A stretch of DNA of 64,000 nt from an uncultured Tateyamaria sp. (GTDB lineage: Bacteria > Pseudomonadota > Alphaproteobacteria > Rhodobacterales > Rhodobacteraceae). The notes under the pieces were generated by a model. That model worked only from the letters and a program-made list of their open reading frames with translations, had not been told where the DNA came from and did no database searches. Below are positions 5,088-64,000 of the stretch, piece after piece (position 1 is the stretch's first letter; each line of letters opens with the position of its first letter). The position numbers and the translations under genes were made by a program. The DNA lies in assembly GCF_947503465.1 (NCBI RefSeq), contig NZ_CANNDN010000006.1:8857-72856 (forward strand), written 5' to 3'.

Positions 5088-5088
5088 G

Positions 5089-20315: not shown

Positions 20316-20398
20316 ATCTTCGGTGTCCTTCCGGATCTGAAAATGCACATCCGGTGACAACATATCAAGGGGCCACAAACCGGCCCCTGCCGTTTGGA

Positions 20399-23507: not shown

Positions 23508-23749
23508 GGCCTGTCCGGGTCATCGCCGCCTTCCCAGATGTCCAGATCCGCCTCATCCATCGGGGTCAGGAAATCAGGCACCGCGCCCAATTGTCCGCGA
23601 TGCGTGCCAAGCGCAAAGCCGGACTGGCGGATCGGCACAAGGCGCACGACCGGGCGCGTGCCCTTGGCAATCACCACGTCTTCGCCCGACAAGGCCGCGT
23701 CGATGAGCTTGCTGAGCTGTGTCTTGGCGGCATGTACACTGAATTGCAT
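23504..23749 (-). CDS. Phd/YefM-type antitoxin of the VapC module
   Basis: 81 aa (MQFSVHAAKTQLSKLIDAALSGEDVVIAKGTRPVVRLVP). ATGA-type overlap with vapC. Confidence 0.75.
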   Translation of the reverse strand: MQFSVHAAKTQLSKLIDAALSGEDVVIAKGTRPVVRLVPIRQSGFALGTHRGQLGAVPDFLTPMDEADLDIWEGGDDPDRP

Positions 23750-27586: not shown

Positions 27587-27654
27587 GCCCGCGTCCTCCG
27601 CATGGAATACCCGGACGTCTTAAGACCATAGTAGGTTGGCTTCAATCGTTAGCG

Positions 27655-48388: not shown

Positions 48389-49198
48389 ATGACCCCCTGG
48401 ATCGCCGCTTTCATCGCGCTCTTCATCTGGTGGTTCTCCACCGGCACGATCCTGATGGCCGTAAAATACGCCGACCGCGCCGGCGAACGGGCACGGCGCA
48501 CCACGACCATCGCGGCCCTGCCCCTGATGGGCCTCGGCGCCTACGGCACCTGGTGGTCCATGACCCAGACCGACATCTTCGGCACCTATGTGGCGTTCCT
48601 GTCGGCACTGGCCCTCTGGGGCTGGATCGAACTGGCGTTCCTCACCGGCATCATCACCGGCCCCAACCGCATGAAACTGCCCACCCACGTCCCCGAATGG
48701 GAACGGTTCATCCGCGCCTGGGGCACGGTGGCCTATCACGAGATGCTGCTGACGGGCACGCTCATCGTCCTCGCGCTCGCCCTCTGGTACGCGCCCAACC
48801 CGTTCGCCTTCTACACCTTCGCGGTGCTGTTCTTCGCCCGCATCTCGGCCAAGCTGAACCTGTTCTTCGGCGTCCCCCGCATCCATGTGGAATTTTTGCC
48901 GCAAGCACTGGCACATCTGCCCAGCCACTTCCGCACGGCGGGCATGAACTGGCTCTTCCCCATTTCGGTCACGGCGCTCACCTTCGCCGCGGCCTGCTGG
49001 CTCGAACGGCTCTATGCCGCCGACACGATGGGGGCTGTCACGGGTTTTGCCCTGCTCACCGCCCTCACGGCCCTCGCGGCCCTCGAACACTGGGTGATGG
49101 TCCTTCCCATCCCCGACGAACGGCTCTGGCGCTGGATGCTGCCTGCGCCCAAACCCACCAAGAACACGACACCACAAGGGGGACATCATGGACTTTGA
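48389..49198 (+). CDS. puhE: photosynthetic complex assembly protein PuhE
   Basis: Trimmed to [25 protein letters not shown]. Multi-pass membrane protein following acsF. Confidence 0.8.
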
Positions 49199-50402
49199 TG
49201 TATTGTTCCAAAGCCAAATCGACGCACTGAAGGACGAGGGGAATTACCGCATCTTCGCCGAACTTGAACGCAAGGCCGGCGCCTTCCCGCGCGCCAAGTG
49301 CCACGACGCGGACGCCCCCGACGAGGTGACAGTGTGGTGTTCCAACGATTATCTGGGCATGGGCCAGCACGACAGCGTCATCAAGGCCATGAAGGACGCG
49401 GTTGAACTTTACGGCGCGGGCGCGGGGGGCACGCGCAACATTTCGGGCACCAACCACGCCCACAAGCAGCTCGAGGCGGAACTGGCCGACCTGCACGGCA
49501 AGGAAAGCGCGCTGCTGTTCACCTCCGGCTACGTCTCCAACTGGGCCGCGCTCTCGACACTGGGCAGCCGCCTGCCCGACGCGGTGATCCTCTCGGACGA
49601 ACTGAACCACGCCAGCATGATCGAAGGCATCCGCCATTCCCGCGCGTCCAAGGTGATCTGGAAACACAACGATCCCGAAGACCTCGACCGCAAGCTGGCC
49701 GCCCTGCCCGCCAACGCGCCCAAGATCGTGGCCTTCGAATCCGTCTACTCCATGGACGGCGACATCGCCCCGATCGCCGAAATCCTCGACGTCTGCGAAA
49801 AACATGGCGCGATGAGCTATATCGACGAGGTGCACGCCGTGGGCATGTACGGCCCGCGCGGCGGCGGCGTGGCCGAACGCGAGGGGCTGATGGACCGCAT
49901 CACCCTGATCGAAGGCACGCTTGGCAAGGCCTACGGCGTCGTCGGCGGCTACATCACCGGGTCCGAGGCGCTGTGCGACTTCATCCGCTCGTTCTCAAGC
50001 GGGTTCATCTTCACCACCGCCCTGCCCCCGGCCATTGCCGCTGCGGCCCGCACCTCGATCCGGCACCTCAAGCAGTCGGACCAGGAACGCATCCTGCAAC
50101 GCCAGCGCGTCGCCTACCTGCGCAAGCGGCTGGACCAGGAAGGCATCCCGCATATCGACAACCCCAGCCACATCATCCCGGTGATGATCAAGGACCCGGT
50201 GAAATGCCGGATGCTGTCGGATTACCTGATGCAGCAATACGGAATCTACGTGCAACCCATCAATTACCCGACCGTTCCCAAGGGCACGGAACGGCTGCGG
50301 TTCACCCCCGGACCGCTGCACAGCACCGATGATATCGAACACCTGGTCATGGCGCTCAAAGACCTGTGGAAACAATGCGCTATTGCGCATGCGGTCGCCT
50401 GA
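49188..50402 (+). CDS. hemA: 5-aminolevulinate synthase
   Basis: 404-aa PLP enzyme ([23 protein letters not shown]). 11-nt overlap with puhE. Confidence 0.95.
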
Positions 50403-51140: not shown

Positions 51141-52709
51141 ATGGCCCGCCTCGCCCCCCTGACGCGCCGCAGCGCCCTCGCCACGCTTCTGGCCGGTGTC
51201 GCCCTGCCACGGATCGCGCTGGCACAGGACACAGGACAGCCCTTTTCCTTCGACTGGCTCAAGGCGCGCATGCAGGCCCGCGCGGCCCAGCCCGACACGC
51301 CCCCCGCCCCGCTCGACACCTTCCTGCAAAACCTCACCTATGACGACTACCGCAACATCTACTTCCGGCCAGAGGCGGCGCGCTGGTCGGACACCCCCCT
51401 GCCCTTCCACGTGTCCTCCTTCCACCCGGGCTGGCTCTTCAACGCACCGGTGCAGATCCACGAGGTGACGGACGGCACCGCCCGCCCGCTCACCTTCACC
51501 ACGGATGATTTCGAATACCGCAACGATGTCGGCACCCGCGTGCCCGATCACGCCGACCTGTCGGGCATCGCGGGCCTCAAGCTGACCTACCCGCTGAACG
51601 AGGCCACGAAGTTCGACGAGGTCGTGACGTTCCTCGGGGCCAGCTACTTCCGGGCGCTGGGGCGCGGCAACGCCTACGGCCTCTCGGCCCGCGGCCTCGC
51701 CATCAATACGTGGCGCGACGGACCCGAGGAATTCCCCCGCTTCTCCGAATTCTGGCTCGAAAAACCCCGCGCCACCGACACGTCCCTCACGCTCTACGCG
51801 GCCCTCGACAGCGCGTCCGTCACCGGGGCCTACAGGATCACCATCACCCCCGGCGACGACACCACCATGGATGTCGAGGCGACGCTCTTCTTTCGCGATA
51901 GCGTCCCGCAACTGGGCCTCGGCCCGCTCACCTCGATGTTCTACTTCGCCGAACACTCGACGCGAAAATTCGACGACTTCCGCCGCCAGGTCCACGACAG
52001 CGAAGCGCTCAAGATCGTCCGCAGGAACGGCGACGTCCTGTTGCGCCCGCTGAACAATCCGCCGCGCGTCTCGTCATCCTATTTCAACGAACCCGACATG
52101 GCCCAGTTCGGCCTGATCCAGCGCGACCGCAGCTACGAGGACTACCAGGACGCGGGCGCCCGCTACCACGACCGCCCGTCGGTGATGATCGAACCGCTGA
52201 ACGACTGGGGGCCCGGCACCGTGCGGCTGGTCGAAATCCCGGCCGACCTGGAAATCGACGACAACATCGTCGCCTTCTGGGTGCCCGAACGCGCCCCCGG
52301 GGCCGGTGAAAGCCGCACCTACGCCTGGCGCATGCACTGGGGCGACCTGCCCCCCTCGGGTGGGCTCGCCTGGGTCCAGGGCACCCTTGCAGGCATCGGC
52401 GGCCCCTCGGGCGTGCCGCTCGAAAACCCCAACCTGCGCAAGTTCGTGGTGGATTTCGAAGGCGGCGCACTCGGCATGATGGACGAAGACGCAAACGTCA
52501 CGCCCATCGTCACCCATTCGGCGGGCGAGATCGCCGGCATGGTCCTGCACAAGGTCCGGGACGCCGCCAAACCCACCTGGCGGCTCTTCATCGACATCGA
52601 CGGCGGGGACGCGGACCTGATCGAACTCACCGCCCATGTCGCGGACGAGACACAAAAACTCTCCGAAACCTGGCTCTTCCAATGGCTGCGCGACGACGCC
52701 CCGACCTGA
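51141..52709 (+). CDS. periplasmic glucan biosynthesis protein, OpgG/OpgD family (Tat-type signal)
   Basis: MARLAPLTRRSALATLLAG twin-arginine signal, then an MdoG-like domain (YDDYRNIYFRPE, SYFRALG, FSEFWLEKP). No opgH nearby. Confidence 0.8.
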   Translation: MARLAPLTRRSALATLLAGVALPRIALAQDTGQPFSFDWLKARMQARAAQPDTPPAPLDTFLQNLTYDDYRNIYFRPEAARWSDTPLPFHVSSFHPGWLFNAPVQIHEVTDGTARPLTFTTDDFEYRNDVGTRVPDHADLSGIAGLKLTYPLNEATKFDEVVTFLGASYFRALGRGNAYGLSARGLAINTWRDGPEEFPRFSEFWLEKPRATDTSLTLYAALDSASVTGAYRITITPGDDTTMDVEATLFFRDSVPQLGLGPLTSMFYFAEHSTRKFDDFRRQVHDSEALKIVRRNGDVLLRPLNNPPRVSSSYFNEPDMAQFGLIQRDRSYEDYQDAGARYHDRPSVMIEPLNDWGPGTVRLVEIPADLEIDDNIVAFWVPERAPGAGESRTYAWRMHWGDLPPSGGLAWVQGTLAGIGGPSGVPLENPNLRKFVVDFEGGALGMMDEDANVTPIVTHSAGEIAGMVLHKVRDAAKPTWRLFIDIDGGDADLIELTAHVADETQKLSETWLFQWLRDDAPT

Positions 52710-52715
52710 AGCCAA

Positions 52716-52740
52716 CCGTAGGGTGGGCAATCTGCCCACC
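52716..52740. repeat. REP-like hairpin CCGTAGGGTGGGCAATCTGCCCACC
   Basis: GGTGGGCA/TGCCCACC inverted repeat, 7 nt after the opgG-like stop. Same unit as at 55354 and 58850. Confidence 0.85.
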
Positions 52741-52896
52741 ATTCCCCCCTTAGGCCGCGCATGCACTGCGCACCATCATGGGGCAACGATCAAAGAACGA
52801 ATGTCCATTTCGAACCCAGACCTACCAAATCGGGATCGGTCTCGCAGATGCAGAAAGGCATGCTACCATTCGGCCTATGGATAAGGAGACAAAGCT

Positions 52897-53505
52897 TTGC
52901 AGTTCGAATTGGTTATGGCGTTCACATTGATTTTTTTGGTGGACTCAATTTCGCCAGGTCCTGCGTCGGCGGCAGTTGTAGCTAAGGGGGCTACTACTGG
53001 ACTGCGACGTACCCTGCCTTTCATCTGCGGCCTTGTTCTTGGCGATCTGGTATTGTTCGCCCTCGCTGTCGCGGGCCTTGCTGCCCTGGCGGCAGCGATG
53101 GGACCCTTCTTTGCTGTCATCAAATGGGTCGGTATCGCCTATCTTCTCTATCTTGCTTACAAGATGTGGACTGCGAAACCCGTGAAGATGTGCACTGCTG
53201 CACCACAGGGCGAGGGTTTGAAGCTTTTTGGCCTCGGGATTTTGCTTCCGCTCGGAAACCCAAAGGCTATTGGGTTCTACATCGCCTTGCTTCCTGCGGT
53301 GATGAACGTATCGGCCATCACTCTGGTCGCTGCGTTTCAGCTTAGCCTGATCATCATCGGAGTTTGGGCGCTCGTGCTGATTGCCTATGCAGCAGCCGCT
53401 GACCGCGCCAGCCGCATGATCTCGACACCACGCGCACAGCTTTGGTTGAACCGTAGTTCTGCGGGGGCAATGATCGGCGCAGCGGGAACAATCGCTGCCA
53501 GATAG
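52897..53505 (+). CDS. LysE-family amino-acid exporter
   Basis: 202 aa. TTG start 7 nt after TAAGGAGA. Visibly lower GC and different codon usage from its neighbours. Confidence 0.7.
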   Translation: MQFELVMAFTLIFLVDSISPGPASAAVVAKGATTGLRRTLPFICGLVLGDLVLFALAVAGLAALAAAMGPFFAVIKWVGIAYLLYLAYKMWTAKPVKMCTAAPQGEGLKLFGLGILLPLGNPKAIGFYIALLPAVMNVSAITLVAAFQLSLIIIGVWALVLIAYAAAADRASRMISTPRAQLWLNRSSAGAMIGAAGTIAAR

Positions 53506-53737
53506 GGATGTCGGCTACGTCCCGCAAACCCGCCACCCATCGCCGGTCCAGCACAAGCCCGTGGGCTGGTGTCACACCAAACAATCGGCCGCACTTTATG
53601 GCAGCCAAACACATCCCACAGAACTTCCGTTCGGCACAGCACCCGAAACACCAGCCCGCCGGAACGGGCCCCCTGTTGGACCGGCGCCTTCGGCGTGAGT
53701 CCGGTCCCGTCAACGAACCGAAAAACGCGCAGGAAAA

Positions 53738-54220
53738 TCACTCCGCCGCCACAGACCCCTTCGCCGCCTCACCCGGGTTCAACCGCCAGACCTCGGCATT
53801 CAGCGCCGCCGCAATCGTCACCCAGACCAGATACGGCACAAACAGCATCCCGGCGAGCGTATCCACCTGCCACAGCGCCAGCAGCGCGCTCAGCACCGTG
53901 ACCCACAACACGCCAATGATCGCCATGCCCAGCCGGATATTGCGCAGCCCGAAAAACACCGGCGTCCACAGCCCGTTGAACGCGATCTGCATGGCCCAGA
54001 ACGCCATGGCAATGCCGTTGTCCCCGGCCATCGCCGCGCGCGCCCCCGCAACGGCCATGCAGACGTAAAGAACCATCCATGTCACGGGGAACACCCAGTC
54101 GGGCGGCGTCCAGGCGGGCTTTGACAGCGACCGGTACCAGGGACCCGGCGGGAACAGCCCGCCGGTCACGCCTGCGCCAAGGCAGGCGGCGAAGAAAACG
54201 CAGAATAAAAGCCAGAACAT
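53738..54220 (-). CDS. tspO: tryptophan-rich sensory protein TspO (CrtK)
   Basis: Trimmed to MFWLLFCVFF... (160 aa). Trp-rich 5-TM protein directly after crtB. Confidence 0.9.
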   Translation of the reverse strand: MFWLLFCVFFAACLGAGVTGGLFPPGPWYRSLSKPAWTPPDWVFPVTWMVLYVCMAVAGARAAMAGDNGIAMAFWAMQIAFNGLWTPVFFGLRNIRLGMAIIGVLWVTVLSALLALWQVDTLAGMLFVPYLVWVTIAAALNAEVWRLNPGEAAKGSVAAE

Positions 54221-54225
54221 GCCAG

Positions 54226-55260
54226 TCAGGTAGCCCGGACTCGCCCCCCGATCAAGCTTGCACGGTCGGCCTGGCGTTTTGCCTCCAGTGCGGCCAGCGC
54301 CTCGAACAGGCTGTCGCTGCGGCTGGGCCGCGCGCCCTTGGCCGCCGCATCCACAAGGAATTGCACCTCCGGCAACGGCTTGGCGTACAGTACGGCGGAT
54401 TGCGGCATCACCATGCTGGTCCCGCTCAGGGCAACCGATTGCGCCAGCCATCCCAGCTTTTGCGCCTTGGACGTCCGCGCCCGGGCCGAGATGCTGTCAT
54501 ACCCCATCCCCGTCAGCCGCCCGCCGATCCCCGCATAGATGTAGCGCGCCGCGTAGATGCCGGGACGGCACCCGCGCGGCAGCGCCGCAATGCCCGCCTC
54601 GGAGCGGTAGTAGAGCCGGTTCGCCTCCATCACCAGGCGCTTGACCATACCCCGCACCGCCTTGGTCGGGCGCGGATCGGCAAAGAACGTCTCGGGCGTC
54701 ATGTCGGCCTCTGCCAGCCATTCGGTGGGCAGGTACAGGCGGCCCTCCAGCGCGTCCTCGCCCACGTCGCGGGCAATGTTCGTCAACTGCATCGCCACGC
54801 CCAGATCGCAGGCCCGCGCCAGCGCATCGCCGTCACGCACCCCCATCAACACGCACATCATCGCGCCCACGGCAGACGCCACGCGGGCCGAGTAGTCCTT
54901 GACCCCGCCCAGCGTCGCATAGGTCCGCGCCTCCGCATCCCAGGCCAGCCCCTCCAACAGGGCATCGGGCAAGGCGCGCGGCATGTCGAACTGTTCCACC
55001 ACCGCGGCAAAGGCCCGGTCAGGCGCCGCATCCTTGGGTGTCCCGGCATAGACAAGGTCCAACCGGTCCCGCAGGCGCAACACCGCCTCGACCTTCTCGG
55101 CCTTCAGATCCACCTCGTCATCGGCAAGGCGGCAAAACGCATACAGCGCCAGCGCCGGATCGCGCACCCGCCGGGGCAACAGCTTCGACGCCGCATGAAA
55201 CGACAGCGACCCATGGCGAATGGCCTCCGTGCAGGCCTCAAGATCGCGTGGATCAATCAT
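54226..55260 (-). CDS. crtB: phytoene synthase
   Basis: Squalene/phytoene synthase motifs (FCRLADDEVD, NIARDVGED). ATG at 55260 preferred over GTG at 55284. Confidence 0.9.
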   Translation of the reverse strand: MIDPRDLEACTEAIRHGSLSFHAASKLLPRRVRDPALALYAFCRLADDEVDLKAEKVEAVLRLRDRLDLVYAGTPKDAAPDRAFAAVVEQFDMPRALPDALLEGLAWDAEARTYATLGGVKDYSARVASAVGAMMCVLMGVRDGDALARACDLGVAMQLTNIARDVGEDALEGRLYLPTEWLAEADMTPETFFADPRPTKAVRGMVKRLVMEANRLYYRSEAGIAALPRGCRPGIYAARYIYAGIGGRLTGMGYDSISARARTSKAQKLGWLAQSVALSGTSMVMPQSAVLYAKPLPEVQFLVDAAAKGARPSRSDSLFEALAALEAKRQADRASLIGGRVRAT

Positions 55261-55281
55261 CGCATCCCCCGCCCGTCCTGC

Positions 55282-55336
55282 CACCGCATCGCCCGTAGGG
55301 TGTGCGCTCTGCGCGCACCAAACGTCATGACACCGC
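55282..55336. repeat. REP-like unit, variant hairpin (GGTGTGCGCtctGCGCGCACC), crtB-crtI spacer
   Basis: Shares the flanks CACCGCATC-CCCGTAGGGTG ... CGTCATG-CACCGC with the adjacent unit. Confidence 0.75.
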
Positions 55337-55342
55337 TCATAT

Positions 55343-55395
55343 CACCGCATCCCCCGTAGGGTGGGCAATATGCCCACCACCCGTCATGTCACCGC
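55343..55395. repeat. REP-like unit with GGTGGGCAatatTGCCCACC hairpin, overlapping the crtI stop codon
   Basis: Tandem with unit 55282-55336. The crtI C-terminal codons and stop (55384-55386) lie inside the unit. Confidence 0.8.
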
Positions 55396-56910
55396 ATCCG
55401 GCACAAGCTGACCCAGCACCTCGGCCGTGGAAATCACACCGGGCACACCGGCGCCCGGATGCGTCCCCGCGCCCACCAGATACAGGCCCTCCGCCTCTTC
55501 ACTCACATTGTGCGGACGGAACCAGGCCGATTGCAAAATCCGCGGCTCGATGGAAAAGCCGGAGCCATTGGGCGACAGATACCGATCGCGGAAGGTCTCG
55601 GGCGTGAACACCTGTTCGGTGCTGATTTTCGACCCTAACCCAGGCAAAAGCTGGTCCTCCAGCACCGCCAGCATCTTGGCCTTGTAGGCGTCGGCCTCCA
55701 CCTGCCAGTCGACACCGCCATGCCCCAGATGGGGCACGGGGCTCAGGACATAGAAGGTGTCATCCCCCTCGGGTGCAACGGACGGGTCCGTCACGGACGG
55801 GCGATGGACATAGAGGCTCATGTCGTCGGCCAGCTTGCCCTTCATGAAGATGTCGTGCAGCAACCCGGTATAGCGCGGCGCGTTCAGAATGGTGTGATGG
55901 CCCACATCGGCCCAGTCCCCACGGGTGCCCTTCGTCCCGAAATACCAGACAAACAGGCTCATGGAATAGCGTGTGCGCTTCAGCTTGGCAGGGGTCCACC
56001 GCTTCTTCGGGGCATGACGCATCAGCCGGTCATAGGTATGGCCCGCATCGGCATTGGACACGACAACATCCGCGCCCAGTTCCAGCCCGGTCTCCAGACG
56101 GACGCCGCGCACACGGGGGCCCTCCACCACGATCTCGTCCACGACGGTGTCCATCAACAACGTGCCGCCCTGATCCTCGATGATATCGGCCATCTTGCGC
56201 GCCATCCCGGCCAGACCGCCCATGGCGTAATGCACGCCGAATTCCTTCTCCAGATAGCTGACCAGAATATACATGCTGGTCACATGGGTCGGGTCGCCCC
56301 CGATAAAGAGGGGGTGAAAGGAAAACGCCATGCGCAGCTTGTCATTGCGAAACCGCCGCGCCGCGTGGGCATAAACGGACCGGTCCGCGCGCAACATCCC
56401 GAAGGTGGGCAACACCTTTATCAAGTCCCAAAGCTGATGCATGGACCGGCGGCCCAGATCCTCAAAGCCGAACCAGTACCGCTTGGCCGAATCCTCCAGA
56501 AACTTGTCAAAGCCCGCGACATCGCGCGGCTCGATCCTGGCAACCTCTGCGCGCATCGCATCCGTGTCATGCTGGGCCACAAACCTGGTGCCGTCCGGCC
56601 AGCGGATTTCATAGAACGGGTCCAGGGACCGCAAATCCACGTCCTCCTCGAACGACCGCCCACAGGCGGCCCACAACTCACGATACAGCTGCGGCACGGT
56701 CACGATGGTCGGACCCAGATCAAAGCGATGCCCGTCCTGCCAAATGGCCGATCCACGGCCGCCCGGCACATCCAGCTTGTCAATCACGGTGACCTTGTAG
56801 CCCTTGGCGCCCAGACGCATGGCAGCCGCCAATCCACCCAGCCCCGCACCAATCACAATGGCGCGGTTCCCGGTGCGGGTCTCCGATTCGATGGGATCAA
56901 GGCGTGTCAT
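55384..56910 (-). CDS. crtI: phytoene desaturase
   Basis: 508 aa. FAD motif AIVIGAGLGGLAAAMRL. Canonical crtI-crtB order. Confidence 0.9.
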   Translation of the reverse strand: MTRLDPIESETRTGNRAIVIGAGLGGLAAAMRLGAKGYKVTVIDKLDVPGGRGSAIWQDGHRFDLGPTIVTVPQLYRELWAACGRSFEEDVDLRSLDPFYEIRWPDGTRFVAQHDTDAMRAEVARIEPRDVAGFDKFLEDSAKRYWFGFEDLGRRSMHQLWDLIKVLPTFGMLRADRSVYAHAARRFRNDKLRMAFSFHPLFIGGDPTHVTSMYILVSYLEKEFGVHYAMGGLAGMARKMADIIEDQGGTLLMDTVVDEIVVEGPRVRGVRLETGLELGADVVVSNADAGHTYDRLMRHAPKKRWTPAKLKRTRYSMSLFVWYFGTKGTRGDWADVGHHTILNAPRYTGLLHDIFMKGKLADDMSLYVHRPSVTDPSVAPEGDDTFYVLSPVPHLGHGGVDWQVEADAYKAKMLAVLEDQLLPGLGSKISTEQVFTPETFRDRYLSPNGSGFSIEPRILQSAWFRPHNVSEEAEGLYLVGAGTHPGAGVPGVISTAEVLGQLVPDAVT

Positions 56911-56922
56911 CTGTGCAAAACA
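56905..56922. promoter_or_regulatory. PpsR-type box TGTCATCTGTGCAAAACA overlapping the crtI start codon
   Basis: TGT-N12-ACA. First of two boxes separated by 7 bp in the crtI-crtA divergent region. Confidence 0.55.
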
Positions 56923-56929
56923 ATACGAG

Positions 56930-56947
56930 TGTCTAGTTTAGTTGACA
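56930..56947. promoter_or_regulatory. PpsR-type box TGTCTAGTTTAGTTGACA in the crtI-crtA divergent region
   Basis: TGT-N12-ACA. Paired with the 56905 box in the closely spaced arrangement known for PpsR-repressed promoters. Confidence 0.65.
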
Positions 56948-57008
56948 ATTTCTTTTCTGTCGCACAGGCTAATCAGGTGCCGTGTGGCACGCTGCCAGTG
57001 CGAAAAAG

Positions 57009-57728
57009 ATGAGCCAAACCACCACCATATCCTTCTTCCGCTTCCCGCGGTGGCGCGACCGGGCATGGGCGCTCGGCATGATGGGCGGCGCGCGGCTGTC
57101 CATGGCGCGCATCCCCGATCTGGGGTTCTGGAAGCTGTGTGGCTCAGGCACGGGCGAAGGGTTCACACCGGTGCCCAACACGGCGGTCTATGCGATCCTC
57201 TGCACATGGCCCGACCCCGAAACGGCCCGCGCACGGATCGACACCACCCGCATCTTCCAACGCTACCGCGCCCGCGCGGCCGAAGATTGGACGGTGTTCC
57301 TGTCCCCCACATCATCGCGCGGGGCATGGAGCGGGCAAACCCCCTTTTCCCCCGTATCAGAGCCTGCATCCGATCCGCATGATCAACCCTTGGCCGCCCT
57401 CACCCGCGCCACGATCAAACCCGGCATCCTGACCAAGTTCTGGGGCCGCGTGCCCGACATCTCGGCCATGATCGGCAGCGACCCCAATGTCCTGTTCAAG
57501 ATCGGCATCGGAGAGGTGCCGATGCTGCACCAGGTCACATTCTCCATCTGGCCGGGGGCACGGGAAATGGCCCAATTCGCCCGCACAAACGGCCCCCATG
57601 CCGACGCCATCCGCGCCGTGCGCGCAGGTGCGTGGTTCCGCGAAGAACTCTACGCCCGCTTCACCATCCTTGGCGACAGCGGCACATGGGGCGGCACCAG
57701 CCCGCTCGAAGGATTACGACTGAAATGA
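57009..57728 (+). CDS. crtA: spheroidene monooxygenase
   Basis: Trimmed to [12 protein letters not shown].... About 239 aa. Divergent from crtI and ATGA-coupled to bchI, as in Rhodobacter-type clusters. Confidence 0.8.
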
Positions 57729-58732
57729 CCAAGACGCCCTTTCCCTTCTCCGCCATCGTGGGCCAGGAGGACATGAAACAAGCGATGATCCTCACCGCAG
57801 TTGATCCCGGCATCGGCGGTGTTCTGGTCTTTGGCGACCGGGGCACCGGCAAATCTACCGCGGTGCGCGCGCTGGCGGCGCTCCTGCCCCCGATCACGGC
57901 TGTCACAGGCTGCCCGATCAACGCGGAATCCCATGACCAATGCCCCGGATGGGCCAATGTAGAGACGAAAAAGACCCGAAAAATCCCCACCCCCGTCATC
58001 GACCTGCCGCTGGGCGCCACCGAGGACCGCGTTGTGGGCGCCTTGGACATCGAACGCGCCCTCACCCGCGGCGAAAAGGCGTTCGAACCGGGCCTGCTGG
58101 CCCGCGCCAATCGCGGCTACCTCTATATTGACGAGGTCAACCTGCTCGAAGACCACATTGTCGACCTCCTGCTCGACGTGGCCCAATCCGGCGAAAACGT
58201 GGTCGAACGCGAGGGGCTCAGCATCCGCCACCCCGCCCGCTTCGTGCTGGTGGGCAGTGGCAACCCCGAAGAGGGCGAATTGCGCCCCCAACTCCTCGAC
58301 CGGTTCGGCCTGTCGGTCGAAGTGCGCAGCCCGAACGACGTGGCCCAGCGGATCGAGGTCATCAAGCGGCGCGACGCGTTCGAGTCCGATTTCGACGCGT
58401 TCATGGCCCATTACACCAAGGAAGACGCCAAGATCCGGCGCAAGATCCTTGCCGCGCGCAAGCTTCTGCCCCAGATCGAAACGCCGGACGCCATCCTGCA
58501 CGACTGCGCGGAACTCTGCATCGCGTTGGGCAGCGACGGCCTGCGCGGCGAATTGACCTTGCTCCGCGGCGCCCGCGCGCTGGCCGCCTTTGACCGCAAA
58601 AAGGTGCTCACCCGCGACCACCTCAAACGCATCGCCCCCATCGCCCTGTCCCACCGCCTGCGCCGCGACCCTCTGGACGAGGCCGGCAGCACCACCCGCG
58701 TCACCCGCACGGTCGACGCCGTGCTGGCATGA
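57725..58732 (+). CDS. bchI: magnesium chelatase ATPase subunit I
   Basis: 335-aa AAA+ protein ([35 protein letters not shown]). Confidence 0.95.
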
Positions 58733-58785
58733 TCGCCGCCATGGTGCGCACACATGCCCACCCCATCCCACTCCTCCCGCACCGC

Positions 58786-58822
58786 CCCCTCTCCCCCAAG
58801 GGGAAAGGGCTGGGGAGAGGGG
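58786..58822. repeat. hairpin repeat CCCCTCTCCCC-N15-GGGGAGAGGGG in the bchI-bchD spacer
   Basis: 11-bp perfect inverted repeat. This type of element often shows up as spurious PLSP-GRG-like ORFs in proteobacterial genomes. Confidence 0.8.
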
Positions 58823-58849
58823 CGCGCAACACCCTACATCCCTCACCCC

Positions 58850-58876
58850 CCGTAGGGTGGGCAATCTGCCCACCAC
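58850..58876. repeat. REP-like hairpin CGTAGGGTGGGCAATCTGCCCACCAC in the bchI-bchD spacer
   Basis: Identical core to the copy at 52716. Confidence 0.85.
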
Positions 58877-58909
58877 CCCTACCGTCCCAACCGCACCAAA
58901 CCCCACGAC

Positions 58910-60553
58910 ATGACCGCCCACAGCTGGCATAACGCGCATCTCGCGCTGCGCCTGCTGGCCCTTGACCCCGCAGGCCTCGGCGGTGCGGTTGTCCGCATGC
59001 GCGCCAGCCCCGACCGCGACGCGTTGCTGGCCGGTTTCACCCCTGCCCTGCCCCTTCGCAAATTGCCCATCTCCATCTCAGACGAACAACTGTTCGGCGG
59101 CATCGACCTCAGCGCCACGCTGTCATCCGCTCAAGTCATTGAAAATAAATCATTTTTTCACAGGCCTTGTATCGCTCAAATCCCCATGGCGGAACGCTGC
59201 CCCCCGGCCCTCGCCGCCAAGCTTGCGCAGCTCGCAGATCAGTCTCTAACACAGGGCTTTTTGCTCCTCGACGAGGGGATCGAGCCTGACGAACGCGCCC
59301 CCGATCCCCTGTCAGATCGCTGCGCCTTTCACCTCGAACCAACGGGTCGAAAACCATCTGTCCCCGCGGGGACACCTCAATCTGTCCCCGCGGGGACAAC
59401 GGTCAATACCGCCGACGCCATCATGCAACTGACCTTGCTCGCCACCCGTTTCGGCATCGCGTCCCTCCGCGCCCCGACCCTTGCGCTGCGCACTGCCCGC
59501 GCCCACGCGCGGCTGATGGGCCGCGACCATCTCACGGACGCCGACCTCGACGTCGCCGCGACCCTCGTCTACCCCCACCGTGCAACGGTCATCCCCGAAG
59601 ACATCGAGGCGGAGGATAGCCCACCTCCCCCACCCCAAAACAACGACTGTCCCCGCGGGGACAGCGAAGAAAACGACGCCATCCCCGACGCGGACATGCT
59701 GGTCGATGCCGTCAAATCCCTGCTGCCCCCCGACCTCCTGAACGGACTTGTCCCCGCGGGGACAACCCGCACATCTGGTGGCGCGGGCGCCGGTCAAAAG
59801 CGCACCAGCAACCGCCGTGGGCGCCCCCTGCCCTCGCGCCCCGGTCGCCTGGACGGCACCGCGCGGATCGACCTGATCGCCACCCTGCGCGCCGCCGCCC
59901 CCTGGCAACCCCTGCGCCGCCAGCAGCAACCGGACCGGACAGGCCTGCTCATCCGTCCGTCCGACATCCGGCTGAAACGCTTCGCCGAACAGTCCGACCG
60001 CCTGCTGATCTTCACCGTGGACGCCTCCGGCTCTGCCGCAGTGTCCCGGCTGGGCGAAGCCAAGGGCGCCATCGAACTCCTGCTGGCCGACGCCTATGCC
60101 AGCCGCGACCACGTCGCCCTCATCGCCTTTCGGGGGACAGAGGCAGAAACCCTCCTGCCCCCCACCCGGTCGCTTGTGCAGACCAAACGCCGCCTGTCGG
60201 CCTTGCCCGGCGGCGGCGGCACGCCGCTTGCCTCGGGCCTGCAACACGCGCTCCTGCTTGCCCAGCACACCAGGGGCAAGGGGCTCACGCCCACTGTCAT
60301 CCTGATCACCGACGGGCGCGCCAACATTGCGCTGGACGGCACCGCCAACCGGGCCCAGGCCGGCGCAGACGCAACGGCCATGGCAACCGCCTTGCGCGCG
60401 ACCGGCACGACATCACTGGTGATCGACATGTCGAACCGGCCCCAGCCCGCCCTGCAGGATCTCAGCCGCGCCCTGGACGCGCCCTACGTGCCCATGCCCC
60501 GCGCTGATGCGCAGCGGCTGAGCGGCGCCGTGGCATCCGCGCTGGACGGCTGA
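58910..60553 (+). CDS. bchD: magnesium chelatase subunit D
   Basis: 547 aa. Degenerate AAA+ N-terminal domain, Pro/acidic linker and C-terminal VWA domain (LLIFTVDASGS...ITDGRAN). No obvious SD. Carries four 16-bp palindromes. Confidence 0.9.
   Translation: MTAHSWHNAHLALRLLALDPAGLGGAVVRMRASPDRDALLAGFTPALPLRKLPISISDEQLFGGIDLSATLSSAQVIENKSFFHRPCIAQIPMAERCPPALAAKLAQLADQSLTQGFLLLDEGIEPDERAPDPLSDRCAFHLEPTGRKPSVPAGTPQSVPAGTTVNTADAIMQLTLLATRFGIASLRAPTLALRTARAHARLMGRDHLTDADLDVAATLVYPHRATVIPEDIEAEDSPPPPPQNNDCPRGDSEENDAIPDADMLVDAVKSLLPPDLLNGLVPAGTTRTSGGAGAGQKRTSNRRGRPLPSRPGRLDGTARIDLIATLRAAAPWQPLRRQQQPDRTGLLIRPSDIRLKRFAEQSDRLLIFTVDASGSAAVSRLGEAKGAIELLLADAYASRDHVALIAFRGTEAETLLPPTRSLVQTKRRLSALPGGGGTPLASGLQHALLLAQHTRGKGLTPTVILITDGRANIALDGTANRAQAGADATAMATALRATGTTSLVIDMSNRPQPALQDLSRALDAPYVPMPRADAQRLSGAVASALDG
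59359..59374. repeat. 16-bp palindrome TGTCCCCGCGGGGACA, perfect (candidate ParB/parS site), inside bchD
   Basis: Exact match. Read in bchD as S-V-P-A-G-T. Confidence 0.9.
59383..59398. repeat. 16-bp palindrome, perfect, inside bchD (tandem with the previous copy at 24-bp period)
   Basis: Exact match. Read as S-V-P-A-G-T. The 19 nt ATCTGTCCCCGCGGGGACA are repeated. Confidence 0.9.
59648..59663. repeat. 16-bp palindrome, perfect, inside the bchD acidic/Pro linker
   Basis: Exact match. Read in a different frame as C-P-R-G-D. Confidence 0.9.
59749..59764. repeat. 16-bp palindrome, perfect, inside bchD
   Basis: Exact match. Read as L-V-P-A-G-T. Confidence 0.9.
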
Positions 60554-60556
60554 TCC

Positions 60557-61429
60557 ATGGACTGGTCGCAGATCAAATCGTGGCCCAATTCCAACCTGTC
60601 CCGGCGGGGACACGGACCTGTGCATCGCTGGCATATTCAGGAGGCAGGCGCAGGCAAGACGGTCCTCATGCTGCATGGCGCGGGCGGGTCGACGCATTCC
60701 TATCGCGGCCTGATCCCGACGCTCGCCCAGGACTTTCGTGTGATCGCGCTGGACTTGCCCGGACATGGGTTCACCCAGTTGGGCGCCCGGCACCGGTGCG
60801 GCCTGGATGCGATGGCCGAGGATGTGAAAAAGCTGTGCGACCACGAAGGCTGGACACCGGACGCGATTGTCGGGCATTCGGCAGGCGGTGCGGTGGCGCT
60901 GCGCCTTGCGGAAAGCGATCTGTCCCCGCGGGGACAAACGCCACTGGTGATCGGGATCAACGCCGCGACCGAGCAGTTCAAGGGCATCGCAGGGCTGCTG
61001 TTTCCCGTCATGGCAAAGGCCCTGGCCGCCGTCCCGTTCACGGCCTCGCTGTTCTCGGGCGCGTCCGCCAGCCCTGACCGGATCAAGGCCCTGATCGGTT
61101 CAACAGGGTCTGTTCTGGATGCCGAAGGGTTGGACCTGTACCGGCGGCTGGTGGGCGACCGGAACCATGTGGACGGAACCCTGCTGATGATGGCGCAATG
61201 GAAGTTGAACCCGTTGCTTGCCCGCCTGCCGGATCATCCTGCGCGGGTGCATCTGCTGGTTGGAGACAAGGACACAACCGTGCCGCCGGCGGTGTCGCGA
61301 AATGCGGCGGCACGCATGCGGGATGCCACCGTGCACATGCTGGATGGCCTGGGGCATCTGGCCCATGAAGAACAGCCCTTCGAGACCGCGCGCATGATCC
61401 GCGATATCATCCGGGACGCGCTGCGATAG
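60557..61429 (+). CDS. bchO: alpha/beta hydrolase BchO
   Basis: 290 aa. HGAGGSTHS and GHSAGG motifs. Canonical position after bchD. Confidence 0.8.
   Translation: MDWSQIKSWPNSNLSRRGHGPVHRWHIQEAGAGKTVLMLHGAGGSTHSYRGLIPTLAQDFRVIALDLPGHGFTQLGARHRCGLDAMAEDVKKLCDHEGWTPDAIVGHSAGGAVALRLAESDLSPRGQTPLVIGINAATEQFKGIAGLLFPVMAKALAAVPFTASLFSGASASPDRIKALIGSTGSVLDAEGLDLYRRLVGDRNHVDGTLLMMAQWKLNPLLARLPDHPARVHLLVGDKDTTVPPAVSRNAAARMRDATVHMLDGLGHLAHEEQPFETARMIRDIIRDALR
60597..60612. repeat. 16-bp palindrome, 15/16 (TGTCCCGGCGGGGACA), inside the bchO N-terminus
   Basis: One mismatch at position 7. Read as L-S-R-R-G-H. Confidence 0.8.
60911..60926. repeat. 16-bp palindrome, perfect, inside bchO
   Basis: Exact match. 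Read as L-S-P-R-G-Q. Shares the left flank AGCGATC with the copy at 61435. Confidence 0.9.
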
Positions 61430-61434
61430 CGATC

Positions 61435-61450
61435 TGTCCCCGCGGGGACA
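61435..61450. repeat. 16-bp palindrome, perfect, 5 nt after the bchO stop
   Basis: Exact match, intergenic. Confidence 0.9.
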
Positions 61451-61464
61451 CCCAGTTTTTGTCC

Positions 61465-61497
61465 ACAAAAAAGCCCGCCAGATCGGCGGGCTTTTGC
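61465..61497. terminator. bidirectional intrinsic terminator between convergent bchO and parB
   Basis: ACAAAAAAGCCCGCC-agatc-GGCGGGCTTTTGCA: a 9-bp GC-rich stem with an A-tract on one side and a T-tract on the other. Confidence 0.75.
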
Positions 61498-61500
61498 ATT

Positions 61501-61516
61501 TGTCCCCGCGGGGACA
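61501..61516. repeat. 16-bp palindrome, perfect, 2 nt from the parB stop
   Basis: Exact match, intergenic. Together with the 61435 copy it brackets the terminator hairpin. Confidence 0.9.
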
Positions 61517-61518
61517 GA

Positions 61519-62571
61519 TCACAGATCAAGCTGATCCAGCAGGGCGCGCACCGCCGCTTCGAGCTTGCGCGGATCGAGGGAACCGAAGTCGCGGTTCATC
61601 TGCAATTCGATTTTGCCCTTTGCGCCGATGACCTTCACCGCGCCGGCCTTGCGGTTCAGCTTGATCGTCGTCTTGGACGAGGTTGAGGGCGCGGCCTGTT
61701 CGCTCACCGGTTTGGGGGCCACGACCTTGTTCAGCACGGCCAGCTCGGCCACGGCGTCGTTGGGCTTTTGATGTTCCAGCAGCACGTTCAACTGCTGGGC
61801 TGTGCGCGGCTGTTCTTCGAGCGCCTTGATCAGCTTGAGACCAAGCGCGCGGGGGATCGCTTCGGGGTATTGCAGCCGGTGGCCCAATTGATCCATCAAG
61901 AGACTGAAACTGCCTATGTAGTGACGCTTTTGCCGTCCGGCAGACGCAAAGAGAACCGCGATGGCATCGTTCAATTCAAGATCCATCTGACGGGCGTAGC
62001 TGGACGCCAGCTGGCCCATCTCGGCGAAGGAGATATCGCGCCGGACCATGTTTTCGTCGACCATGCGGCGGTAGAGTTTTTCGAGTGCTTCGCCCTTGGC
62101 CACCAGCACGGCCGGGATGGCGGCGTATTTTTCGTCGCCCGTCTCTTCATACAGCGATTTATAGGCGCTGAGACGGCGGAAACCCTGGATCAACTCATAC
62201 CCTTCGCCGGTGTCCTCGACCTGGATCGGGTTCGACAGTCCCAGATCGCGGATCGAAGTTTTCAACTCTTCAAGGTCCGGGTCGCGATTGGTGCTGCGGT
62301 CGCGCGTCAGCTTTTTCATCGCCACGTCCCCAAGGGGAACGCGGGCCACAATCGCGCCATCCCTTTTTAGAGACACATATTCGTGGGCAAGCCGGTCATT
62401 CTCGGCGCGAATCTCCGCCTCTGCCGAGTGGCGTTCGCTGAGAGCCGTGGCGTTTTCCGAGATGGCGGCAGCCATGGGGCCACGGCGGGTTTCGGGGGCA
62501 GGGGCCTCGGCTGCGTCCTCGGGCCCTGCGCCCGGTTCAAAATCAATGTCGAATACGCGGCGTTTGCTCAT
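61519..62571 (-). CDS. parB: ParB/RepB-type plasmid partition protein
   Basis: 350 aa. ParB N-terminal domain (NPIQVEDTGEGYELIQGFRRLSAYK). ATGA overlap with parA. Confidence 0.85.
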   Translation of the reverse strand: MSKRRVFDIDFEPGAGPEDAAEAPAPETRRGPMAAAISENATALSERHSAEAEIRAENDRLAHEYVSLKRDGAIVARVPLGDVAMKKLTRDRSTNRDPDLEELKTSIRDLGLSNPIQVEDTGEGYELIQGFRRLSAYKSLYEETGDEKYAAIPAVLVAKGEALEKLYRRMVDENMVRRDISFAEMGQLASSYARQMDLELNDAIAVLFASAGRQKRHYIGSFSLLMDQLGHRLQYPEAIPRALGLKLIKALEEQPRTAQQLNVLLEHQKPNDAVAELAVLNKVVAPKPVSEQAAPSTSSKTTIKLNRKAGAVKVIGAKGKIELQMNRDFGSLDPRKLEAAVRALLDQLDL

Positions 62572-63872
62572 GCCTCATCCTCCAGTTGGTCCCAGGCTGT
62601 TCCCAGGTTCGTTTTGAATTCTTCATAAGCCCGGTCAAAGGACGCGCGGGCGCGGCGCCAGGTTTCGCGGGTCATGTCCCGGTAATCTATTTCGTAGATA
62701 CTGCTGAGGAATCGCCCTGACTGCTCGACGGCGCGGGTCATTTCGATCGGGTGTTCGCAGACGCGGTCGCCGAACACCTTTTGGAAGGCACCCTGCATGG
62801 CGCGATGCAATTCGTTGCCCGGCTCGAACCGGGTGAGCAGGAAGCGGAGGTCGAGGAAGGTCTTGGGCAAGGTCATTGTCCCCGCGGGGACAAGCCCGTT
62901 GAAGCGCGACAGATCTTCGAGCGCTTCGGACAATTGGCCGATGAAGGACGTGGTGGAATCGTATTCCCAGTAGCCGGGGCCGGAGGGGATGTAGAGCACG
63001 TCGGCGGCGAAGACCGCGTTCATGGACTGGTAGCCGATGGCGGGCGGGCAGTCGAACAGGATGAGGTCATAGGTGTCGGCCGCGATCTGGTCGAGGAAGC
63101 GCGAGACGGCGGCGAAGAAGGACCATTCGGGGTTGATGTGCCGGTATTGCGCGGAGGCAAATTCGACGAAGGCGGCGTTGGCGCAGCTTGGCACGATGTC
63201 GATCGTGGGCCAGTTCGTGGGCTTGATGAAGTCGCTGGCGCGCAGGTCATTGAGCCCCATGTCGGTGATTGCCGCAGGCAGCTTGCGTTGGGGCAGGGCG
63301 GTGCCTGATTCCGCGCCGCGCAGCGCGGAGTTCATGCGGTCCGTCTCGAACCCCAGATCGCGGGCCATGATGCCCCAGACGGTGTATTCCTCGGCCACGT
63401 CCGACAGGCCCATGGAGTGGCTGAGCGTGGCTTGCGGGTCGAAATCGACGCAGAGCACGCGGTAGCCGTCGAGGGCGGCGGCGTGGGCGAAGTGCAGCGC
63501 CGTGGTGGATTTGCCGGCGCCCCCCTTGAAGTTGGCGATGGCGGCGCGGATGGCGCGCTTGTTCACCGGGCGGTAGGGCATCATCGACTTGCGGTTCACC
63601 TTGATCCGGCGGCGCAACTCGTTGATTTCATCGAGGGAGTACCAGCGTTGGCGGCCGTCTTCCTCGACCGTGCCCTGGGGCAGGGAAGGGTCGGCGGCGA
63701 GGCGGCCGCGCAGGGTGGATTGGTTGGCCTTGAAGATCAGTTCCGCCACTTCCCAGCTTGAGAAACGGCGGAGGGTCTTTTCGCTTTCGGGCGAGTAGGT
63801 TTGCTGGCGGATGAACCCCTGCATCTTGAGGGATTGCGCCTGAAGCTGGGCGAGGTCTGTGTGCGTAAACAT
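62568..63872 (-). CDS. parA: ParA/RepA-type plasmid partition ATPase (long, type Ia-like)
   Basis: 434 aa. Deviant Walker A KGGAGKST with an N-terminal extension. Typical of RepA/ParA from alphaproteobacterial plasmids. Confidence 0.9.
   Translation of the reverse strand: MFTHTDLAQLQAQSLKMQGFIRQQTYSPESEKTLRRFSSWEVAELIFKANQSTLRGRLAADPSLPQGTVEEDGRQRWYSLDEINELRRRIKVNRKSMMPYRPVNKRAIRAAIANFKGGAGKSTTALHFAHAAALDGYRVLCVDFDPQATLSHSMGLSDVAEEYTVWGIMARDLGFETDRMNSALRGAESGTALPQRKLPAAITDMGLNDLRASDFIKPTNWPTIDIVPSCANAAFVEFASAQYRHINPEWSFFAAVSRFLDQIAADTYDLILFDCPPAIGYQSMNAVFAADVLYIPSGPGYWEYDSTTSFIGQLSEALEDLSRFNGLVPAGTMTLPKTFLDLRFLLTRFEPGNELHRAMQGAFQKVFGDRVCEHPIEMTRAVEQSGRFLSSIYEIDYRDMTRETWRRARASFDRAYEEFKTNLGTAWDQLEDEA
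62877..62892. repeat. 16-bp palindrome, perfect, inside parA
   Basis: Exact match. Read on the minus strand as L-V-P-A-G-T. Confidence 0.9.
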
Positions 63873-63888
63873 GCGCTGCCTGTTGATG

Positions 63889-63904
63889 TGTCCCCGCGGG
63901 GACA
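63889..63904. repeat. 16-bp palindrome, perfect, upstream of parA (16 nt between it and the start codon)
   Basis: Exact match in the putative parA promoter/operator region. Confidence 0.9.
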
Positions 63905-63914
63905 GGTGGTGTCT

Positions 63915-63930
63915 TGCCCCTGCGGGGGCA
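63915..63930. repeat. degenerate copy (TGCCCCTGCGGGGGCA, 13/16) upstream of parA
   Basis: Sits between two good copies with centre spacing of 26 and 23 bp. Taken alone, a 13/16 match would be borderline chance. Confidence 0.55.
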
Positions 63931-63937
63931 TCTTGTG

Positions 63938-63953
63938 TGTCCCCGCGGGGACG
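63938..63953. repeat. 16-bp palindrome, 15/16 (TGTCCCCGCGGGGACG), upstream of parA
   Basis: One mismatch at the last position. Confidence 0.8.
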
Positions 63954-64000
63954 CTTTTTCTGCTGGTTTCCAGATTTACGCCGATTTTGCGGAAAAAGCA

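Follow-up and report, generated by a model that had tools for sequence, protein, structure and literature searches.

We have identified a 16-bp palindrome, TGTCCCCGCGGGGACA, that recurs in and around the partition genes parA and parB in a 64-kb stretch of DNA from an uncultured Tateyamaria sp. (contig NZ_CANNDN010000006.1; the whole stretch is hereafter called the window), where these genes directly adjoin a partial photosynthesis gene cluster (PGC). The palindrome is most likely the parS centromere of this partition system, and some of its copies lie inside the photosynthesis genes bchD and bchO. We consider it moderately probable that it is a ParB-binding centromere encoded in part by the bchD and bchO reading frames, with the partition complex assembling on photosynthesis genes. 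The window itself very probably represents most of an extrachromosomal replicon (plasmid or chromid) of about 80-85 kb from a Tateyamaria-like roseobacter, with parAB and the putative palindromic parS as its partition system.

The palindrome and its positions

The partition genes converge with an operon of photosynthesis genes:

56982-61429, plus strand, crtA-bchI-bchD-bchO operon, convergent with parAB (NCBIfam)
60557-61429, plus strand, bchO (open reading frame, NCBIfam)
61519-62571, minus strand, parB, putative centromere-binding protein of 350 amino acids with a ParB_N domain (open reading frame, Pfam, NCBIfam, motifs)
62568-63872, minus strand, parA, type Ia partition ATPase of 434 amino acids (open reading frame list, Pfam, NCBIfam, structure matches)

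The parA and parB frames lie where an earlier reading of this DNA, made from its letters alone (the sequence-only reading), had placed them, and overlap by 4 bp. Its distance of 89 bp between parAB and bchO is also correct (61430-61518, from the end of bchO at 61429 to the parB stop codon).

With up to two mismatches allowed, the palindrome occurs 11 times in the window (nine perfect copies and two with one mismatch), where chance would give 0.11, and every copy falls within the 4.6 kb from 59359 to 63953. Four copies lie in bchD, two in bchO, two in the gap between bchO and parB, one in parA and two upstream of parA:

59359-59374, perfect, in bchD, VPAGT (about residues 150-155), common to the Roseobacter lineage
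59383-59398, perfect, in bchD, 24 bp after the preceding copy, peptide SVPAGTPQSVPAGT
59648-59663, perfect, in an acidic, proline-rich BchD linker, CPRGD, in close Tateyamaria relatives only
59749-59764, perfect, in bchD, VPAGT (about residues 280-285), kept across the Tateyamaria and Roseobacter plasmid lineages
60597-60612, one mismatch, in bchO, SRRGH (about residues 14-19), in 6 of 10 aligned Tateyamaria-lineage loci only
60921-60936, perfect, in bchO, SPRGQ (about residues 122-127), the most widely conserved intragenic site
61435-61450, perfect, in the bchO-parB gap, 5 bp past the bchO stop codon
61501-61516, perfect, in the bchO-parB gap, 2 bp from the parB stop codon
62877-62892, perfect, in parA, VPAGT, the DNA site kept at this position in most related loci
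63889-63904, perfect (TGTCCCCGCGGGGACA), 16 bp before the start codon of parA, candidate parS and operator
63938-63953, one mismatch (TGTCCCCGCGGGGACG), upstream of parA

Depending on the frame, the palindrome is read in coding sequence as VPAGT, CPRGD or SPRG(Q/H). Alignments place the bchD and bchO sites at variable loop or linker residues, which they replace (BchD about 150-163, 246-251 and 280-285; BchO about 14-19 and 122-127), and the VPAGT peptide of ParA is kept in all 12 aligned ParA homologues. The CPRGD at 59648-59663 contains an RGD motif, and BchD has an integrin-I-like VWA domain; this RGD is probably a coincidence of the DNA site.

A type Ia partition pair

The 434-residue ParA has KGGAGKST, a deviant Walker A motif, at about residues 116-123, and its ATPase core is preceded by an N-terminal extension of about 105 residues. 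It thus has the two features by which type Ia ParA proteins are recognized, a KGGxxK[ST] motif and an N-terminal extension of about 100 amino acids, the latter being absent from the short chromosomal and type Ib proteins. The sequence-only reading had described parA as long and N-terminally extended, and the frame at 62568-63872 agrees. Pfam matches are to AAA_31, CbiA and MipZ. The top NCBIfam match is the plasmid partition protein RepA (TIGR03453), at 216 bits and thus below the equivalog cut-off of 348.45 bits, with SopA a weaker match; the RepA model covers residues 12-166, and SopA, P1/P7 ParA and ParA2 align to the C-terminal half. Among solved structures, ParA matches P7 and P1 ParA and Vibrio ParA2, and also Soj.

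The parB gene lies directly 3' of parA in the same operon, and its product has the ParB/Srx-type N-terminal domain of a type Ia partner (ParB_N, 26.9 bits against a cut-off of 26.3). Its match to RepB (TIGR03454) spans the full length but is weak (29.4 bits against a cut-off of 201.5), so that the earlier description of parB as RepB-like holds in a distant sense only. The match to Spo0J is also weak (E = 1e-6). Two ParB motifs, GFRRLSA and DENMVRRDIS, resemble the arginine patch and box III of ParB proteins that bind cytidine triphosphate (CTP).

Membership of the repABC family is contradicted by the two scores below the equivalog cut-offs and by the gene downstream of parB, which is convergent bchO and not repC. 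A chromosomal Soj/Spo0J system would have a ParA of about 250 amino acids and parS sites of the form TGTTNCACGTGAAACA and would lie near oriC; here ParA has 434 residues, the palindrome has another core and the neighbours are photosynthesis genes. Because the RepA and RepB scores fall below their cut-offs, the structure matches are P1/P7-like and ParB_N is present, parAB is, by these sequence criteria, a type Ia plasmid partition pair, a cousin of the repABC RepAB proteins that stands outside that family.

ParA is 98.6% identical to its counterpart on plasmid pDOK1-4-3 of Tateyamaria omphalii and 88% identical to that on pRLO149_94 of Roseobacter litoralis; for ParB the values are 93% and 58%. 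The earlier view that these are plasmid-type genes, not the chromosomal soj/spo0J pair, is borne out by the length of ParA, its best match to RepA and these orthologues. Orthology to the parAB of DnaA-like I plasmids, as represented by pRLO149_94, is indicated by pairwise identities, not a tree (88% and 58%), together with the same position, orientation and palindrome, and this supports the view that the window's parAB is of the type accompanying DnaA-like I replicons of Rhodobacterales. The DnaA-like I compatibility group was reportedly defined by Petersen and colleagues in 2011, and pRLO149_94 of R. litoralis Och 149 is said to have been described as a DnaA-like I photosynthesis plasmid by Petersen in 2012. 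A scan upstream of parA found no sigma-70-like promoter, a result that is uninformative for an alphaproteobacterium.

The palindrome accompanies this ParAB across plasmids

The complete T. omphalii plasmid has 12 copies at up to two mismatches, all confined to the equivalent 4.7 kb, and R. litoralis pRLO149_94 has six copies at matching positions (three in bchD, one in bchO, one in parA and one upstream of parA). The same 16-mer, counted at up to one mismatch, surrounds homologous parAB genes on plasmids that carry no photosynthesis genes, with 17 copies in Alloyangia pacifica, 11 in Leisingera aquaemixtae and three each in Aliiroseovarius and Roseinatronobacter. The Roseinatronobacter plasmid has a Rep_3 initiator, yet the same ParAB and palindromes. 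Thus, the palindrome goes with ParAB and not with the replicase. On Alloyangia pacifica unnamed5 (locus L003, 8371-8869), a 166-bp unit is repeated three times in non-coding DNA downstream of parB; within a unit, three palindromes follow one another at spacings of 54, 48 and 64 bp, an arrangement like that of sopC.

A scan for BchD with one genome per species gave 80 loci. The canonical palindrome was found within bchD or bchO at 26 of the 29 loci with this ParAB beside bchO, and no copy was found in 41 of 42 bchD loci without ParAB (Fisher p = 5e-15, for loci that are phylogenetically related). At the remaining three of the 29, ParB is 46% identical, and a variant, GTTCCCCGCGGGGAAC, takes the place of the canonical site in bchD, bchO, parB and upstream of parA. 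The loci with GTTCCCCGCGGGGAAC are L045, L046 and L058, on Cognatishimia-like contigs of about 29-51 kb, and L095, Pseudosulfitobacter plasmid P4 (ParB 46-49% identical). This variant (GTT...AAC) fits the repABC parS consensus, GTTNNCNGCNGNNAAC, exactly.

Other ParB clades among PLSDB plasmids have further variants, CTTCCCCGCGGGGAAG on Dinoroseobacter shibae pDSHI02 (L092) and CTTATCCGCGGATAAG on Loktanella salsilacus plas1 (L096), which have the CCGCGG centre in common with the canonical palindrome. The canonical site is not on pDOK1-4-6 (L098), the second DnaA-like plasmid resident in T. omphalii, and neither for this plasmid nor for Cereibacter sphaeroides (ParB 33-34% identical in the two) was a repeated perfect palindrome of at least 12 bp found. 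The variants of the ParB clades resemble the compatibility-group-specific palindromes of repABC plasmids (PMC5613091, PMC9040568), and the outer bases of the palindrome may define compatibility groups among DnaA-like plasmids.

We compared bchD and bchO of the window with those of eight Roseobacter-lineage plasmid loci. Outside the palindromes the genes are 55-67% identical. At the shared palindrome sites, identity is 94-100% for seven of these loci; the remaining one, L040, lacks one bchD site. Thus, we suggest that the sites are under selection at the DNA level. Three close Tateyamaria relatives without ParAB (L020, L021, L023) have 7-13 mismatches to the palindrome in the same 16 columns. 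Six Sulfitobacter contigs (L054, L060, L061, L067, L069, L075) encode another partition ATPase, 27% identical, after bchO, and a different palindrome, TTGCCCATGGGCAA, flanks their par operon; neither TTGCCCATGGGCAA nor a relic of the canonical site was found inside their bch genes. Thus, intragenic sites appear to be specific to this ParAB lineage.

Decay in chromosomal clusters

The chromosomal PGC of Roseobacter denitrificans has been inferred from phylogeny to be re-integrated from a plasmid (Brinkmann et al., PMC6052148). No parAB or replicase follows bchO in this genome (L089, CP000362), and at the positions of four R. litoralis palindromes (8465, 8855, about 9030 and 10024) it has 3, 2, 6 and 4 mismatches, respectively. 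Since bchD-bchO is 81% identical overall between the two species, these sites drift at about the background rate. Matches with up to four mismatches occur 0.63 times per 10 kb in loci without ParAB; three of them at exactly homologous positions within 2.5 kb are therefore unexpected. These decayed copies look like the scar of a return from plasmid to chromosome.

On a 584-kb contig of a metagenome-assembled genome (CALSOO010000005.1, L036, 10529-13200), an 18-codon stub of the 3' end of parB directly follows bchO and precedes an IS21-family element, and the palindromes in bchD and bchO have 0, 1 and 2 mismatches; a contig of this kind could be chimeric. The chromosomal cluster of Roseobacter fucihabitans shows no trace of the palindrome.

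A probable photosynthesis replicon of the Tateyamaria group

All 64 kb of the window are collinear with the circular 77.6-kb pDOK1-4-3 of T. omphalii DOK1-4 (NZ_CP019315.1), bar one inversion and a few small insertions, at 83-86% identity by megablast and 80-89% per segment in a blastn map; the closest bchD relative in GTDB genomes is 89% identical. In many Tateyamaria genomes the contig with the related bchD locus is 72-89 kb long, and the crtA-bchIDO|parBA junction is also present on R. litoralis pRLO149_94. A DnaA-like I module at this position of the PGC has been described (Brinkmann 2018, PMC6052148; Liu 2019, PMC6739100), and the T. omphalii, syn59 and ANG-S1 replicons were termed chromid-like (Liu et al. 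2019, PMC6739100). The window is a further member of this Tateyamaria group of photosynthesis plasmids, and its architecture is not new, because the same junction has been published for photosynthesis plasmids in both papers.

The cumulative GC skew has its minimum at about 60-62 kb, beside parAB, and its maximum at about 20-22 kb, which agrees with a replicon of roughly 84 kb whose origin lies next to parA. A divergent gene for a DnaA-like protein of 227 amino acids lies about 400-750 bp beyond parA in all 29 non-Rep_3 loci with this ParAB that extend far enough (25 PGC loci and four plasmids without photosynthesis genes, with one Rep_3 locus left out), and it is 60-95% identical to the T. 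omphalii replicase. From these comparisons we infer that the window's replicon is extrachromosomal and that its replicase gene lies just beyond the window's end. The module has a central position in the PGC as described in Brinkmann 2018, directly after bchO and between the crtA-bchIDO and hemA-puh-bch parts of the cluster; here it directly follows bchO on one side, across the 89-bp gap, and on the other side hemA-cytC-mdoG stands beside tspO and not beside the replicase, owing to the inversion.

The sequence-only reading had proposed an extrachromosomal and potentially transferable PGC. Its first part gains support from the collinearity with pDOK1-4-3, the published bchO|parB junction, the GC skew, the intact palindromes and the absence of tRNA, rRNA or any other Rfam match from the 64-kb window, rRNA operons being among the features that it had named as evidence for the main chromosome. 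Transferability finds no support in gene content, as the annotation of the homologous T. omphalii plasmid lists neither a relaxase nor a type IV secretion gene and PLSDB types that plasmid as non-mobilizable.

Proposed mechanism

We propose that parA and parB form one operon and that ParB dimers load at TGTCCCCGCGGGGACA, 11 copies of which extend over 4.6 kb from bchD to the parA promoter. ParB would then probably spread across the bchD-to-parA region as a CTP-dependent clamp, and nucleoid-bound ParA-ATP would separate sister plasmids. The two copies just upstream of parA are probably autoregulatory as well. On plasmids of this ParAB family without photosynthesis genes, the palindromes form a non-coding array downstream of parB; on the photosynthesis plasmids, convergent bchIDO fills the space of that array, and the sites would have been incorporated into BchD and BchO at tolerant loops and linkers, as VPAGT, CPRGD or SPRGQ.

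The pattern resembles that of a type Ia centromere, with 11 clustered palindromes, co-occurrence with ParAB, variation with ParB clade and signs of selection, and ParB binding is predicted from it. We infer spreading and partition function from the same features. Several points weigh against this proposal. No binding, spreading or stability experiment on the palindrome was found in the literature searched, and the association statistics come from related lineages, which are not independent events. Additionally, DNA binding through the N-terminal domain is also a property of type Ia ParA proteins, so that some of the copies, above all the ones at the parA promoter, may be operators for ParA and not sites for ParB.

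Alternative explanations

The window could instead be chromosomal, with parAB the remnant of an integrated plasmid. Chromosomal PGCs descended from plasmid-borne ones do exist, in R. denitrificans (PMC6052148) and on the contig with the parB stub; core-like genes (dxs, idi, hemA, panBC, glpKD) are present on the replicon, and circularity cannot be read from the window. However, both par genes are full length, with a ParA 98.6% identical to a plasmid-borne copy, and 9 of the 11 palindromes are perfect, whereas R. denitrificans and L036 have lost parAB and mostly show 1-6 mismatches (one L036 copy is perfect). Because the palindromes are intact here and decayed where the module was lost, an integrated remnant is disfavoured. 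The match of all 64 kb to a 77.6-kb circular plasmid, the relatives on 72-89 kb contigs, the inversion of GC skew at parAB and the lack of tRNA, rRNA or other Rfam matches point the same way, and we regard a chromosomal location as very improbable. Two observations count against the extrachromosomal reading: the window ends 128 bp past the parA start, leaving the replicase gene, origin and circularity outside it, and one related module (L011) lies on a 224-kb contig, so larger cointegrates are possible.

The palindromes themselves might serve other ends, as operators of PpsR/CrtJ, as iterons of the DnaA-like replicase or as hairpins in RNA of the repetitive extragenic palindromic (REP-like) or terminator kind. 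PpsR/CrtJ binds TGT-N12-ACA; the palindrome also ends in TGT/ACA, and ppsR is on the same replicon. Yet its spacing is N10, variant palindromes lack TGT/ACA, parAB is flanked by the same site on plasmids that lack photosynthesis genes, and there is no copy in the other 59 kb of the window, which includes the PpsR-regulated bch and puh operons. On the spacing, the variants and the presence on non-photosynthesis plasmids we reject a PpsR operator. Copies do lie in the region between parA and rep, where an origin would be expected, but the site persists where the initiator is Rep_3 and not DnaA-like, and the Rep_3 plasmid with the same ParAB and sites leads us to reject this candidate too. Each copy can form a 6-bp GC hairpin and a terminator scan flags some of them, but most lack a T-run and lie in frame within genes. 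Taken together, we judge these non-centromere roles improbable. A less remote but still unlikely explanation is that the intergenic copies alone act as parS and that those in bchD and bchO are unselected by-products of local duplication or gene conversion from the array. Intragenic copy number does vary between lineages (1-4 in bchD, 1-2 in bchO), two copies arose through a 24-bp tandem duplication, and two intergenic copies might be enough for partition. By-products, however, would not be expected to stay 94-100% identical at three intragenic positions between lineages whose bch genes are 55-67% identical, or to be lost in the close relatives without ParAB (L020, L021, L023; 7-13 mismatches). 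The roughly background drift in R. denitrificans, and the variant-ParB lineage having its own variant within bchD and bchO, also argue against by-products.

Comparison with known systems

The window shares gene content and order, the bchIDO|parBA junction and 11-12 palindromes at the same positions with T. omphalii pDOK1-4-3 and the syn59 and ANG-S1 plasmids (PMC6739100). It differs from pDOK1-4-3 in belonging to another species-level lineage, in the inversion of the block from tspO to parA, and in insertions carrying CopCD, Fic/Doc together with a peptidase-like gene, VapC/Phd and LysE. A look-up of the exact ParA, ParB and HemA proteins in the public gene index gave no match. With R. litoralis pRLO149_94 (PMC6052148) it shares crtA-bchIDO followed by convergent parBA, a ParA 88% identical and the same palindrome; ParB is 58% identical, the R. 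litoralis plasmid has fewer intragenic sites, and the host genus and accessory genes are others. The GC content of the R. litoralis plasmid is lower (Liu et al. 2019, PMC6739100).

Like repABC modules, the window encodes a long, N-terminally extended ParA together with a ParB that is RepB-like, and repABC plasmids likewise have 16-bp palindromes with a central GC, each specific to a compatibility group and in some cases several to a replicon (PMC9040568, PMC5613091). The window's operon lacks repC, however, and relatives have a DnaA-like gene as initiator, which is separate and divergent; the ends of repABC parS are GTT/AAC, and those of the window's palindrome are TGT/ACA. F sopABC and P1/P7 parABS have the same class of ParA and a centromere of multiple repeats downstream of the B gene, to which the sopC-like Alloyangia array corresponds, but sequence similarity is low and the window's sites are scattered through 4.6 kb, flanking the operon on its two sides and also falling within three coding genes. 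Chromosomal Soj/Spo0J-parS systems also have a 16-bp TGT...ACA palindrome, tolerate intragenic parS and have the arginine-patch and box III motifs of ParB. The window differs from them in a ParA of 434 rather than about 255 amino acids, in another parS core, and in not lying beside oriC, gidB or rsmG.

Gene content and layout of the window

From the left, the window opens with the 3' end of dxs. Accessory genes fill about the next 23 kb (among them a peptide ABC transporter, short-chain dehydrogenases/reductases, an aldehyde dehydrogenase and panBC), and glpKD comes after them. Then follow idi, bchP, a pucC-family gene, bchG, ppsR, a B12-binding gene, bchFNBHLM, puhABC, acsF, puhE and hemA, and after these a cytochrome c gene, mdoG, the minus-strand genes tspO, crtB and crtI, and then crtA-bchIDO and parBA. 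The bchI, bchD, bchO, crtA, crtI, crtB, tspO and hemA products exceed NCBIfam equivalog or subfamily cut-offs. Genes of core metabolism on the replicon (dxs, panBC, glpK/glpD, idi and hemA, at 2-556, 18026-19743, 24581-28820 and 49188-50402) fit the label chromid-like of Liu et al. 2019.

As the sequence-only reading had it, puf, bchCXYZ and crtCDEF are missing from the window, which has no blastn match to the T. omphalii segment that carries them (L001, 1-16278). The left edge falls within the 3' end of dxs, which comes after pufC in T. omphalii, so that taking dxs as a marker of the puf side was sound. Of the two toxin-antitoxin modules claimed earlier, VapC/Phd is confirmed; for the second, the analysis gave a Fic/Doc toxin-like gene and no verified antitoxin. 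Features that set the window apart from the T. omphalii plasmid, and one further element, are:

4239-5430, copCD-like copper resistance genes, an insertion absent from the T. omphalii plasmid
19760-20368, Fic/Doc family gene, an insertion absent from the T. omphalii plasmid; the segment also holds a peptidase-like gene
23118-23749, VapC (PIN)/Phd toxin-antitoxin pair, an insertion absent from the T. omphalii plasmid
52897-53505, LysE-type exporter gene, only in the window, at the inversion breakpoint
53738-64000, block tspO-crtB-crtI / crtA-bchIDO / parBA, inverted relative to pDOK1-4-3 (blastn map, gene order of relatives)
61469-61495, GC-rich hairpin in the bchO-parB gap, flanked by an A-run and a T-run, one at each side (RNA fold)

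The hairpin at 61469-61495 probably terminates transcription from both directions, that of bchIDO and that of the convergent parAB operon, as RNA folding suggests. The 101-nt gap region folds with a minimum free energy of -64 kcal/mol (z = -10.8), and the hairpin is bracketed by two palindromes able to pair with each other.

One breakpoint of the inversion lies within 52708-53737, beside the window-specific LysE gene. The usual order, found in all 15 related loci and on pDOK1-4-3, is crtC, tspO through bchIDO, parBA, rep, DinB, (mdoG) and hemA; in the window it is instead hemA, cytC, mdoG, LysE and then tspO through parBA. The inverted block takes in the partition module and, presumably, also the replicase. 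The inversion is absent from the 15 relatives checked, and an assembly error may be its source.

Implications

Plasmid-borne photosynthesis clusters are proposed vehicles for the patchy spread of phototrophy among roseobacters. One more photosynthesis replicon is by itself incremental; what our analysis adds is a candidate parS within bchD and bchO, together with its decayed chromosomal copies. Neither the palindrome nor parS is mentioned in PMC6052148 or PMC6739100. The literature searched also did not contain GTCCCCGCGGGGAC; an earlier description in Petersen 2011/2012 is possible. A plasmid centromere written into the cargo genes that it helps to inherit thus appears to be undescribed in that literature.

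The principle of an intragenic parS is, by analogy, ordinary and not unprecedented, because Bacillus subtilis has one parS inside spo0J. The palindromes would also be a case of constraint at the DNA level shaping protein linkers, as VPAGT, CPRGD and SPRGQ in BchD and BchO would be dictated by a putative binding site. Loading of ParB over the 3' half of crtA-bchIDO could even couple Mg-chelatase expression to partition, although this is pure speculation. The candidate centromere could serve incompatibility-based curing of photosynthesis plasmids, with loss of pigment as the read-out, and the palindrome could allow DnaA-like plasmids to be sorted into compatibility groups by their sequence, a practice already in use for repABC. 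If our interpretation is correct, decayed copies at the same codons are sequence scars of chromosomal clusters that were once plasmid-borne, and such scars would make the published 'outsourcing/insourcing' scenario directly testable.

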